Shown here piece after piece: positions 21,504 through 25,119 of a stretch of 64,000 nucleotides of DNA. The notes under the pieces were generated by a model. That model was not told the origin of the DNA. It ran no database searches and saw nothing but the letters and a program-made list of their open reading frames with translations. Position 1 is the stretch's first letter. The number at the start of each line of letters is the position of its first letter. The DNA is taken from IMG/VR virus record IMGVR_UViG_3300037067_021710, one strand, 5' to 3'. The translations under genes were made by a program, and so were the position numbers. Origin of the DNA: a virus (lineage: Duplodnaviria > Caudoviricetes).

Positions 21504-21779
21504 TTACTCGAATACTCCACGTATTACAAGTAAATCACCAGATGTTACATAACTAGTCGAGTTATCAATAATAGTAAGAAGCCCACCCGATCTAGCATAA
21601 GTGTATTTACATCCAGTCTTTTGAATACCAGTGCGGTCTCTGTGGTCAGCCATAAAAATAAAATCAGAAGTATAAGCAGCTCCAGACTTTATGTCAATTA
21701 TGACCTTATTAGCAGTATCTTGAGCAGCAGAAACTGTGTGATAAATAGTAAGAGATTTTTTGTAACTTTTTTTAGACAT
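21504..21779 (-). CDS. small beta-rich late protein, possibly virion-associated
   Basis: Has its own TTACTAATAA motif at 21841-21850; three SG dipeptides in 91 aa. Confidence 0.5.
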   Translation of the reverse strand: MSKKSYKKSLTIYHTVSAAQDTANKVIIDIKSGAAYTSDFIFMADHRDRTGIQKTGCKYTYARSGGLLTIIDNSTSYVTSGDLLVIRGVFE

Positions 21780-21863
21780 TTCTAATACCTTTTAGATAAA
21801 GTTTTTAGACTTAAGGCTATTTCTAACCAAATCTAATTTATTATTAGTAATATCTAGAGGAAA

Positions 21864-23069
21864 TTATCTTACATATTCGTTCCACTGGCTTTGTAGTCGT
21901 TTCATTAAAATCTCATCATATAATTCTTTAGGACAAAATCCTTCTTTATCTTCAAAAATATGCTCAAAACATTGTATAATTTTTTGTACACTAAATCGCT
22001 CTAAAATTATATCTCTATTTCCCTGAGCTTTAATATAATAGGCTTCTTTGTCTTCTTTCCATAATTTATATAATGAAGCTAATCCTACAATAGAATCTCT
22101 GATTAGAGGTACTCCATAATATGAACCGTATTCATAATTATGATGATACATACTATGAGCTTCATCTAATACGTATTTAACAGAATAATTTACAGGAGAC
22201 TTAGCAACTTCAGCAGATGAAGACCAGTTTGTATAAACTACTGGAATTCCACATAGCATTGATTCTACAGCAGGTAAACCAAAACCTTCACCACGACTTA
22301 AAAATAGTAATACTGAAACTGATTTATATAAAGTCACCATTTCTTCAGAAGTTAATTCTTTATTTATAGTGTATATTGAAGTATTTTTACATTCCATATT
22401 AGTTTGAGCACAGCATTTTATTAAGTCTTCTACAGAAAATTCTATATCTGAAAGTAAGTGGTATTTCATTACTAAACGAGAGTCTTTTGTAACCCCTAAA
22501 GCTCGTGAATAAGCTATGATTGAGTCCTCTACTCCTTTACGTTTCGTATTTTGCCCTACAAAAAGCACAGTAAATTTCTCTTCTTGTTTCTTAATTTCTA
22601 AATCAGTAAGAGTATATTTAGAAAAATCAACATAAATTGGAAAATAATAAACTTTCTTTTTTGTTAAATTTAAAAGTTGATTTCCAATAAAATATGAAGA
22701 GGCTACAAACCCATCAAAAAAAGTAGAGTCATCAAATAAGAAAGACCAAGCTCTTGGAAGTGGTAAAGTTTCCCATAATATATTTAAAAATTTTCTTTTA
22801 CAATTTCTCATTAAATGATATAATAATTCTTTATCAATAGGGTTTAACAATGAGAATGGATTAACAACTAAAAACCCGATATCAAATTCATCAGCATTAT
22901 CTAGATTTTCTTTAGAAATTTGTTCTAAAGTATTTACTATTGTTAATTTAGAAATTGTCTTTTGAGACATCATCATTGAAAATATTGTAACAAAACTTGC
23001 TGAGGCATTTCCATACCCAGCATCTTTTGATGAAAATCCTTGAGTAGGTGCAATTAATAAAACCCGCAT
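21864..23069 (-). CDS. glycosyltransferase, GT4-like (GT-B)
   Basis: LFVGQNTKRKG, SRGEGFGLPAVESMLCGIPVV. Confidence 0.9.
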   Translation of the reverse strand: MRVLLIAPTQGFSSKDAGYGNASASFVTIFSMMMSQKTISKLTIVNTLEQISKENLDNADEFDIGFLVVNPFSLLNPIDKELLYHLMRNCKRKFLNILWETLPLPRAWSFLFDDSTFFDGFVASSYFIGNQLLNLTKKKVYYFPIYVDFSKYTLTDLEIKKQEEKFTVLFVGQNTKRKGVEDSIIAYSRALGVTKDSRLVMKYHLLSDIEFSVEDLIKCCAQTNMECKNTSIYTINKELTSEEMVTLYKSVSVLLFLSRGEGFGLPAVESMLCGIPVVYTNWSSSAEVAKSPVNYSVKYVLDEAHSMYHHNYEYGSYYGVPLIRDSIVGLASLYKLWKEDKEAYYIKAQGNRDIILERFSVQKIIQCFEHIFEDKEGFCPKELYDEILMKRLQSQWNEYVR

Positions 23070-23100
23070 TATTTATCTCCAAATTTTTTAAATTCTATTA

Positions 23101-24396
23101 TCACATAATTCTCTTTAATTTAAGTTTTAACAAAGGGTCAGAGCTTCCACCATCATAATTTTTTTCAATAAGATCGATAAACTGTTTTCCAACTATATCC
23201 CACGAAAATCGTTGAATATATTGATATCCTAACAATCCAAGCCTTTCTGCTAAACCTTTATTTGAAATTATTTTAGCCATCTGCTTTGCACAATCTTCAG
23301 TATCTGCAATTGCAAATTTTATTGCTGCATTAATTGCATACGTAAAGTCATTCACTTTAACTGGAAGGCCTATGCCTCTACAGTATTCCACATGCCCGCC
23401 ATAATCTATATAAATCACTGGTTTTTTATGAAGCATAGCTTCTACATACCCATAACCAAAACCTTCACCACCAGAAAGCCCAACAAAACAATCACTTACT
23501 TGAATACGTCTATATAATTCTTTTTTAGACATCCCAAAATTTGTTTGATACCCCATAGGAAAAAAGACACTTTGATTAAGACCGTAAAGAGTGACTACAT
23601 CTAAAAGGTCTGTACCACCATCTTGACTCGCAACCCCAGTATGAATATATAATTTATATTTATTTTTAGAGTCAGAAACTTTTTGTTTAAATTTAGCAAA
23701 AGCTTCTATTATTTTACCAAGCATTTTTCTTTCACCATTTGTTGCTACAGTAAAAAACACAAAGTCATCATTCGAAAATCCATTTCCAAAAACTTCTTGT
23801 TTAGTAAGTTTGTCAGTAATTTCATTCTTAAAATCGTAGTCTACATCAATACCAAGGCTTATTGGAATTGTAGGAGTTAACCCTAAATTTTCTAAACAAG
23901 ACTTGCCCATAGATGTACAAGGGACTAACAAATCTGAAGTATTTAAAATGTCTTTAATTGATTTTCTTGGGGCTGGAGCAATTGGAGTTGGAAATAAACA
24001 GTGCTCTGGATATTGAGGAGTCTCAATAGTTACATAGTCAACCCAATAAAAAGACTCTCTAAAAAGACAATATGCTAAAGAATCTTGTAACCAAGGATCT
24101 ATCATTGAAATAACAAGATCTGGATTATAAGTCTCAATTGCATTGTTAAATAATTGAGAAGTTTTTGAATCTAGTATCTGGGAATTAGTAATAAACATGG
24201 TGTTAGCTAATTCTCTAAAGTCTTCCCCATGAATAAGCATCCCTTCTCTAGTAGTGTCCATTCCCGATAATGTAGCATACCCTATTTCATAGTTTCCTGT
24301 TTTATAAAATTGCTTAATAAGAGAAACGTTTACATAAGCAAGACCAGATATATAGTTAAGACTTTCTCCACAAAATAAAACTTTTAATTTAGCCAA
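23101..24396 (-). CDS. glycosyltransferase, GT4-like (GT-B)
   Basis: VATNGERKM, SGGEGFGYGYVEAMLHKKPVI, FSWD. Confidence 0.9.
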   Translation of the reverse strand: MAKLKVLFCGESLNYISGLAYVNVSLIKQFYKTGNYEIGYATLSGMDTTREGMLIHGEDFRELANTMFITNSQILDSKTSQLFNNAIETYNPDLVISMIDPWLQDSLAYCLFRESFYWVDYVTIETPQYPEHCLFPTPIAPAPRKSIKDILNTSDLLVPCTSMGKSCLENLGLTPTIPISLGIDVDYDFKNEITDKLTKQEVFGNGFSNDDFVFFTVATNGERKMLGKIIEAFAKFKQKVSDSKNKYKLYIHTGVASQDGGTDLLDVVTLYGLNQSVFFPMGYQTNFGMSKKELYRRIQVSDCFVGLSGGEGFGYGYVEAMLHKKPVIYIDYGGHVEYCRGIGLPVKVNDFTYAINAAIKFAIADTEDCAKQMAKIISNKGLAERLGLLGYQYIQRFSWDIVGKQFIDLIEKNYDGGSSDPLLKLKLKRIM

Positions 24397-24417
24397 AGTA
24401 CAACTCCTAATTTTTCC

Positions 24418-25119
24418 TTAATTATTAGTATTTGGAACAGCTTCCTCTATTTGTAATCCTGTATTAAAATCTTTTTCCGATTTACCAGTTCCCTTATTAA
24501 ATCTGTAATGTTTAGAATTGACATAACCATCTCTCTCTAATGTTTTCCATTTTAAACAAGGGCCACAATAACCACAATTATCTTCATCACCTTCACAAAA
24601 AGTTATTTCACTTATAATATCAAAAGGTAATTCTGCTAATTCTTCAGATTTTTTAGTCTTTAATAAAGGAAAAGTTAATTTTGGATAATTATGCATAAAA
24701 GGAATATAAGCATCATATAAATTATAAATATCATTTACATAAGAAACAGCATCATCGTTCATTACATAACAAATAGCAATTTTTGTAGCAGTAGAGTAAT
24801 TAAATATAATTCCAGTTAACCAAACTAATATTTGGCATAAATAAAGCCCATTTCGTGTGCTTTTAATATCTACAGAAATTCCTTTCCCTAAATACTCAAA
24901 GTTTGGAAATATTTGAAATAAAGGCAATATTCTTTCTATAGCTTTTAATTCTCTTTTAGTTTTTGTATAATTATTCATTATTTCAAAATAACTAGCTTTT
25001 ATTATAAAACCTGCATTTAAAGCTTTCCAAATAAAATAAGTTGAGTCTAATCCACCTGACCAAGCTACAAAAATAATATCATCTTTTGAATAAATTTCAG
25101 AAAAGTTTAAAATACTCAT
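24418..25119 (-). CDS. QueC-like PP-loop ATP pyrophosphatase
   Basis: WSGGLDST PP-loop; C-terminal FC...NCGYCGPC zinc site. Confidence 0.75.
   Translation of the reverse strand: MSILNFSEIYSKDDIIFVAWSGGLDSTYFIWKALNAGFIIKASYFEIMNNYTKTKRELKAIERILPLFQIFPNFEYLGKGISVDIKSTRNGLYLCQILVWLTGIIFNYSTATKIAICYVMNDDAVSYVNDIYNLYDAYIPFMHNYPKLTFPLLKTKKSEELAELPFDIISEITFCEGDEDNCGYCGPCLKWKTLERDGYVNSKHYRFNKGTGKSEKDFNTGLQIEEAVPNTNN
24422..24430 (-). promoter_or_regulatory. late-class promoter motif TACTAATAA in front of the glycosyltransferase pair
   Basis: Exact match to the motif before the virion genes, about 25 nt upstream of the 24396 start. Confidence 0.6.

Follow-up and report, generated by a model that had tools for sequence, protein, structure and literature searches.

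To our knowledge, the only viruses shown to glycosylate their virions are a few mycobacteriophages and giant viruses of algae or amoebae, and among tailed phages we know of no demonstrated precedent other than the mycobacteriophages. According to the work of Freeman et al. (2023), as it is cited in PMC12619734, glycosyltransferases (GTs) of mycobacteriophages Che8, Corndog, and Myrna decorate virion proteins, with the glycans sitting on the C-termini of capsid and tail-tube subunits. Here, we describe a cassette of three genes in a stretch of 64,000 nucleotides (nt), hereafter the window, from the IMG/VR virus record IMGVR_UViG_3300037067_021710. Two of the genes encode GT4-like glycosyltransferases, GT1 and GT2, and the third encodes a small protein of 91 amino acids (aa). 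The reading that we tentatively favor, holding it at slightly less than an even chance, is that the cassette glycosylates a phage protein late in infection, the 91-aa protein being the leading candidate for its acceptor or partner. The window corresponds to places 12166-76161 of a 76-kb record with an estimated completeness of 46%, and coordinates are window positions unless they carry the L or G prefix of relatives’ contigs or genomes. The source is an uncultured T4-like phage. Its window (28% GC) encodes a contractile tail with sheath, tube, tape measure, baseplate wedge, and fiber (PHROGs), a T4-style replication set (family B polymerase-sized open reading frame [ORF], clamp loader, primase, and RecA/UvsX-like protein), and a T4-style nucleotide set (NrdD and its activase, dNMP kinase, and dCMP deaminase). 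Searches of the region and of GT1 by blastn and tblastn against 50,697 deposited phage records gave no match (tblastn of GT1, E 1e-5).

As seen in Table 1, the placement of the promoter-like motif TACTAATAA and of a hairpin gives a unit with the order TACTAATAA, GT1, GT2, TACTAATAA, 91-aa gene, hairpin. The hairpin is the sole terminator-like site found between 20300 and 25300, and the three genes form a self-contained cassette closed by it. An earlier note on this DNA had reported two GT4-like genes behind an exact TACTAATAA and a further copy belonging to the next small gene; both observations hold, by Pfam matches of two intact genes and a motif 25 nt upstream of GT1, and by a copy 61 nt upstream of the 91-aa gene. 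The window holds 12 copies of the motif (expected number, 3.1), a count that none of 100 shuffles reached, and all 14 copies in the 76-kb record sit 5 to 140 nt 5′ of a start codon. The genes downstream encode the fiber, wedge/baseplate, tape measure, tube, sheath, and repeat proteins as well as GT1 and the 91-aa protein, a placement that bears out the earlier claim that TACTAATAA is found mainly before structural genes. The T4 late-promoter word TATAAATA was rejected as the late promoter here, given that it occurs at chance level (22 seen versus 20.3 expected). A complete relative, G002 (155.6 kb with terminal repeats, 29% GC), which encodes homologues of all three cassette proteins, keeps TACTAATAA in 33 copies, including before its sheath, tape-measure, and wedge genes. 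One of these copies lies 69 nt 5′ of the 93-aa homologue of the small protein, and GT1 starts 22 nt after that gene. Judged from these motif positions, the cassette is probably expressed late, with a timing shared with the tail and baseplate genes.

Table 1. Positions of the cassette, its flanking elements, and other features of the window discussed in the text
Feature	Position	Strand	Remarks
Promoter-like motif TACTAATAA	24422..24430	-	25 nt 5′ of GT1 start; overlaps last codons of QueC-like gene
GT1, 431-aa GT4 (GT-B)	23101..24396	-	TTG start after AGGAG; Pfam PF00534
GT2, 401-aa GT4	21864..23069	-	Pfam PF00534 and PF20706
Second TACTAATAA copy	21841..21849	-	61 nt 5′ of 91-aa gene
91-aa beta-sandwich protein	21504..21779	-	Phage-only family; candidate GT1 partner or acceptor
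Terminator-like hairpin	21440..21481	-	Directly 3′ of 91-aa gene, before DHH phosphoesterase gene
QueC-like PP-loop ATPase	24418..25119	-	PHROG 1550, E 1.3e-18; weak Pfam QueC; directly 5′ of cassette
DNA-modification operon	8473..13712	-	Ugd, SDR epimerase/dehydratase, UDG-like, kinase-like, 400-aa protein, dCMP hydroxymethylase
dCMP hydroxymethylase, 240 aa	8473-9195	-	T4 gp42-type, intact; E 8e-53 to PDB 1b49
Tail, baseplate, and fiber arm	46047..58605	-	PHROGs; SG and SGS over-represented
Fiber, 324 aa	46047-47021	-	
379-aa protein	47055-48194	-	
Sheath	56782-58605	-	
Repeat protein, 766 aa	61075..63375	-	15 RTLTSG[ST] copies spaced 20-22 aa; own TACTAATAA upstream

Judged from gene order, the distinctive feature here is the conserved pair formed by GT1 and the small protein. 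Four more groups of contigs (L006/7/28, L008/9/31, L010/30, and L027) encode a homologue of the 91-aa protein directly 5′ of GT1, and ten other groups have GT2 after GT1; in the window, GT1 is accompanied by both. A profile search of 1.84 billion representatives returned 49 clusters of the small-protein family, nearly all of 86 to 106 residues, and the nearest clusters in the ESM Atlas are viral and unnamed. The AlphaFold2 (AF2) model is a confident small beta-sandwich (mean predicted local distance difference test [pLDDT] score, 86.7), for which fold searches returned nothing more specific than a beta-sandwich resemblance to virion domains of phages and to pilin domains. Moreover, an unrelated siphovirus (L055) has a member of the family (E 9e-22) whose gene is flanked by those of the major head protein and the head-tail adaptor and has no GT gene in its vicinity; the position is the usual one for decoration or head accessory proteins. 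We regard the 91-aa protein as a probable virion protein, head-associated and of the decoration type.

Both transferases score well above the Pfam gathering cutoff of 26.4 bits for Glycos_transf_1 (GT1, 45.1 bits; GT2, 48.9 bits), although they share only about 24% identity with each other. The EX7E glutamates (E311/E319) and the basic pair R223-K224 are invariant in 25 GT1 sequences, as are E261/E269 and R177-K178 in 20 GT2 sequences. In GT4 enzymes, such an R-K pair binds the donor diphosphate. Since both proteins keep these residues, GT1 and GT2 look like active retaining GT4 transferases. The AF2 model of GT1 (pLDDT, 89.3; predicted template modeling score, 0.88) has the two Rossmann domains of the GT-B fold, and its top Foldseek matches are all GT4 enzymes. 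The nearest solved structure is that of chlorovirus B736L (3oy2; profile hidden Markov model [HMM] E 9e-22), which matches the GT1 model over its full length (Foldseek E 2.6e-18; template modeling score, 0.72/0.79; 17% identity) and is followed by BshA, HepE, MshA, PimB′, and PglA. B736L, which binds GDP-mannose (PMC9614988), is likewise the best solved relative of GT2 (E 1.1e-11). A Pfam GT4-conflict match of GT2 (30 bits) was considered as a clue to the acceptor and set aside as uninformative (PMC8195603). Each transferase belongs to a subfamily of its own of about 40 metagenomic proteins, and the two frequently co-occur, as judged from contigs of matching length. A scan of 185,579 prokaryote species, one genome each, found nothing for GT1 and only distant generic GT4s for GT2 (23 to 34% partial identity, with one short segment at 41%), so that both subfamilies appear to be restricted to phages.

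The comparison with G002 also bears on the nature of the acceptor. This complete genome has ThyX and contains no member of the dCMP hydroxymethylase family (PF00303) and no gene of the Ugd operon, the DNA-modification operon of Table 1. Since it nevertheless keeps GT1, GT2, and the small protein, the cassette is independent of the genes for hydroxymethylcytosine (hmC), and this independence favors a protein over DNA as the acceptor. The cassette genes also change their surroundings. They lie in the replication arm of the window behind a structural-gene motif and beside the sheath gene in G002, where GT2 (120244-121374) and GT1 (131859-133172) flank a 13-kb rare-sugar island located between the sheath gene and more genes shared with the window’s structural arm. 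The island encodes a further GT4, two FkbM methyltransferases, a radical SAM-SPASM enzyme, a thiamine pyrophosphate (TPP)-enzyme fragment, an SDR epimerase, and the 93-aa protein. In L005, the pair is followed by a GDP-mannose 4,6-dehydratase and a second SDR gene, and in L018, by genes for a TnpB-type transposase and a TPP enzyme. Given these differing downstream sugar genes, the sugar supply varies by lineage while GT1 stays. The earlier suggestion that the transferases use a UDP-sugar made by the phage is not supported by this comparison, since G002 lacks the Ugd operon and the genes behind the pair in L005 are for a GDP-sugar.

Under the reading that we favor, the cassette would be transcribed together with the tail and baseplate genes, and late in infection GT1 and GT2 would assemble a short glycan on a protein that the phage makes. 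The 91-aa beta-sandwich protein would be the best candidate acceptor or partner, and other exposed virion proteins might be further targets. The genes present, the placement of the motif, the conserved linkage, and the independence from the hmC genes are observed, whereas the late timing, the choice of a protein as acceptor, and the nature of the donor sugar are the parts of this scheme that we infer.

Several points weigh against it. In G002, TACTAATAA is also found 5′ of nonstructural genes, such as that of the DHH phosphoesterase, so the motif is no strict marker of structural genes. The fold of the 91-aa protein has no significant match (best Foldseek E against PDB, 0.19; BFVD, 0.025; VIA Z, 6.2). 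GT4 enzymes as a group use acceptors as different as proteins, lipids, sugars, and small molecules. For B736L, no acceptor is known (PMC9614988), and this enzyme is also a generic HHpred match for T4 alpha-gt (PMC6024577); the likeness of GT1 to B736L therefore amounts to “viral GT4” and is uninformative on the acceptor. Furthermore, the pair stands among DNA-metabolism genes (SNF2 helicase, RuvC, or ThyX-like) in the window and in L005, L018, L012, L032, and L021, and the phage of the window itself encodes a gp42-type hydroxymethylase and is thus predicted to make hmC. Phages with several DNA glycosyltransferases have been reported, as cited in PMC12619734 from Pyle et al. (2024).

The alternative that survives best, which we consider unlikely, takes up these last points. 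It holds that GT1 and GT2 extend a glycan on hmC-DNA after the 400-aa protein of the operon adds the first sugar, like the second transferase of T2 and T6. The gp42-type hydroxymethylase (E 8e-53) accompanied by Ugd and SDR genes would fit this scheme, as would the position of the pair in the replication arm after the SNF2 helicase gene, shared with L005 and L018, the RuvC or ThyX-like genes that precede GT1 elsewhere, and the match to B736L that GT1 has in common with T4 alpha-gt. What speaks for a protein instead is that G002 keeps the whole set in the absence of hydroxymethylase and Ugd operon, and that the cassette comes with a structural-gene promoter motif and a virion-like protein. In addition, some relatives (P0067 and L021) carry a fusion of GT2 with an FkbM sugar methyltransferase, suggesting a more elaborate glycan. 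All GT-B enzymes are distantly alike, and T4 alpha-gt and beta-gt are both missing from the PDB profile matches listed at E up to 1e-3 and from the 50 best fold matches. Extension of a DNA glycan may occur in this particular phage but is not the general role of the GT family.

We also observed an 11-nt overlap between the hydroxymethylase gene, the last one of its operon, and the stop of the 400-aa ORF; longest-ORF calling misses this gene. Upstream of the same operon, a one-mismatch copy of the motif, TACTGATAA, lies at 13728-13736 on the minus strand, 15 nt 5′ of the Ugd gene. This operon for sugar nucleotides may belong to the TACTAATAA promoter class, although this copy is possibly due to chance because the record holds 102 one-mismatch copies. 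In G002, a second common upstream word, TTCTATATATTA, precedes about 20 genes and may be an early or middle promoter.

Both acceptors could also be served in one phage. Such a phage would run two sugar programs, with one glycosylating its hmC-DNA and the late cassette acting on a dedicated putative capsid-decoration protein of the 91-aa family and possibly on SGS-bearing fiber and sheath loops. We regard this combination as rather improbable. If it held, the particle would carry an exchangeable coat of glycans, made in different relatives from different sugars (GDP-, CDP-, or UDP-derived).

A third possibility is that GT1 and GT2 act on a glycan of the host envelope or on a lipid-linked sugar, for example, to keep progeny from adsorbing to debris or to prevent superinfection, or that they make a soluble glycoconjugate. 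Most characterized GT4 enzymes indeed use lipid, sugar, or small-molecule acceptors, the nearest cellular structures to GT1 are BshA, MshA, PimB′, PglA, and HepE, and homologues are labeled “cell wall biosynthesis” in the sources. Nevertheless, neither the cassette nor the island of G002 encodes a flippase, polymerase, or transporter, the two GT subfamilies appear to be confined to phages, and the linkage that is conserved is to a virion-like protein. Late remodeling of the envelope would moreover be of little gain to a lytic T4-like phage. We therefore hold an envelope or small-molecule acceptor to be distinctly unlikely.

The earlier note had further proposed that the transferases recognize an SG[S/T] sequon in virion proteins, on the basis of hand counts of the Ser-Gly (SG) dipeptide. 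Those counts are exact for the sheath (10), the fiber (7), the 379-aa protein (8), the 91-aa protein (3), and the polymerase (4), and the repeat protein, for which more than 25 had been given, has 27. The comparison that it suggested, with a composition null and with the reverse dipeptide GS alongside, gave an enrichment beyond the Ser and Gly content. In structural proteins without the repeat protein, the observed-to-expected ratio (O/E) of SG was 1.69 (z 3.6), whereas that of GS was 1.26 and not significant. Local heterogeneity in composition was rejected as the cause, given that shuffling in blocks of 20 or 40 residues still left an O/E of 1.58. A generic trait of myovirus structural proteins was rejected too, as the 26 structural proteins of T4 gave only 1.07 for SG and 1.08 for GS. 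When a 358-aa late protein was added to this structural set, block shuffles gave an O/E of 1.71 to 1.76 for SG and of 1.22 to 1.25 (not significant) for GS, with 14 SGS observed versus 2.1 expected. Nonstructural proteins had an O/E of 1.35 for SG and 0.87 for GS; without the 358-aa protein, these values were 1.24 and 0.82 to 0.83 in block shuffles, with 5 SGS versus 3.3 expected. These composition-corrected statistics indicate that the SG excess is real and specific to the order of the two residues. Even so, without the repeat protein, SG ranks third among 400 dipeptides (z 3.3), so that the excess is not robust to multiple testing, and the contrast between structural and nonstructural proteins has a p of 0.15, or of 0.02 after post hoc regrouping. 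A context of SGS with L, V, A, or F as the next residue is shared by five unrelated proteins.

The signal does not follow the enzymes into the relatives. The structural orthologues of G002 had an O/E of 1.43 for SG and 1.35 for GS, with 3 SGS versus 2.0 expected, and G003, in which a 93-aa gene adjoins GT1, had 1.34 and 0.79, with 5 SGS versus 3.4 expected. Only 10 of 51 SG sites, 5 of these 10 in the sheath, are kept as SG at the aligned place in G002 (35% overall identity). In the absence of an SGS excess in G002 and G003, the excess belongs to this phage’s fiber-like proteins and does not travel with GT1 and GT2. In the repeat protein, 15 of the 27 SG come from a single amplified unit, RTLTSG[ST], and neither G002 nor G003 has an orthologue of it. 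The one conserved site at an SG position in the 91-aa family is mostly TG, located before a near-invariant Gly in a hairpin turn. The proposal that the pair O-glycosylates many virion proteins at SG[S/T] with the phage’s own UDP-sugar is thus very unlikely, despite the SG ratio of 1.6 to 1.7, the concentration of SGS in structural proteins, the flat T4 control, and the recurring SGS context. From the idea of a late virion O-glycosylation, the structural-gene motif, the virion-like partner, and the independence from hmC remain as support, while the SG[S/T] sequon and the phage-made UDP-sugar are not supported.

Some additional features of the SG-rich proteins were observed. The 358-aa protein (L036:10924-12000, minus strand) has 8 SG versus 1.8 expected and three SGSL. 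It shares a C-terminal domain (PHROG 15875) with a 287-aa protein (L036:10042-10905, minus strand); the two genes lie just upstream of the window, and an exact TACTAATAA is found upstream of a 52-aa ORF preceding the 358-aa gene. In the repeat protein, the RTLTSG[ST] units are usually preceded by IW-x4, three longer VWNE...H..SG..G units are also present, and over its N-terminal 100 residues the protein shares 54% identity with a hypothetical protein of Microcystis phage Mvi-Yong1342-1. An SG frequency above expectation together with a GS frequency below it (O/E of 1.24 to 1.35 versus 0.8 to 0.9) was seen in the nonstructural proteins of the window and in the structural arm of G003, and not in T4.

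Regarding the immediate surroundings of the cassette, the QueC-like ATPase gene has no counterpart beside GT1 in the relatives, and no other deazaguanine genes were found in the record. One idea is that this ATPase may serve in the amidation of a uronic acid. Genes for TnpB/Cas12f-like IS605 OrfB proteins adjoin the GT1 cassette at L006:8303-9529 and L018:13291-14535, and a GIY-YIG homing endonuclease gene is located upstream of GT1 in L018; the neighborhood of the cassette is a hot spot for mobile genes.

If glycosylation of a phage protein by this cassette were true, it would extend virion glycosylation to a different group, the environmental T4-like phages, and would offer a compact, testable pair of enzyme and substrate. 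The SG analysis adds a caution, in that a sequon enrichment that looks plausible can be peculiar to one lineage and have nothing to do with the enzymes.

Compared with known systems, the closest in structure are B736L of chlorovirus NY-2A and A546L of PBCV-1 (3oy2/3oy7), which are likewise virus-encoded soluble GT-B enzymes of viruses that glycosylate their own capsid. They differ in having a eukaryotic host, in having no known 91-aa partner, and in the low identity (17%) of B736L to GT1. Systems of the mycobacteriophage type have their GT genes in or beside the operon of virion structural genes; the cassette occupies the replication arm of the window, behind the structural-gene motif, and stands beside the sheath gene in G002. 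It differs from those systems in its link to a small, separate protein, and no sequence relation of GT1 to the mycobacteriophage transferases was detected by the tblastn search of the 50,697 phage records (E 1e-5). The T-even alpha-gt and beta-gt and the second transferase of T2 and T6 are also GT-B enzymes in hmC phages and can act serially, whereas the GT1 and GT2 families occur in the hydroxymethylase-less G002 and with a structural-gene promoter motif. Paired GT4 enzymes acting on serine-rich repeat proteins are found in staphylococci (SdgA/SdgB) and streptococci (GtfA/GtfB). SdgB is among the fold matches of GT1 at ranks 37 to 49, no better than generic GT4s, and the DUF1975 insert had no Pfam match in GT1 or GT2. 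In contrast to GtfB, which is a noncatalytic partner, both phage enzymes keep the invariant EX7E and R-K residues, and the bacterial substrates carry SD or SASESAS repeats, whereas the repeat of the window is RTLTSGS. As for the small protein, T4 Soc and Hoc are small accessory capsid proteins encoded off the head operon with their own late promoters. Although no sequence or fold relation between Soc and the 91-aa protein was found, and the virion location of the latter is deduced from genes, the 91-aa gene resembles those of Soc and Hoc in being small and alone, outside the structural arm, with its own promoter motif and with kin in a head module.

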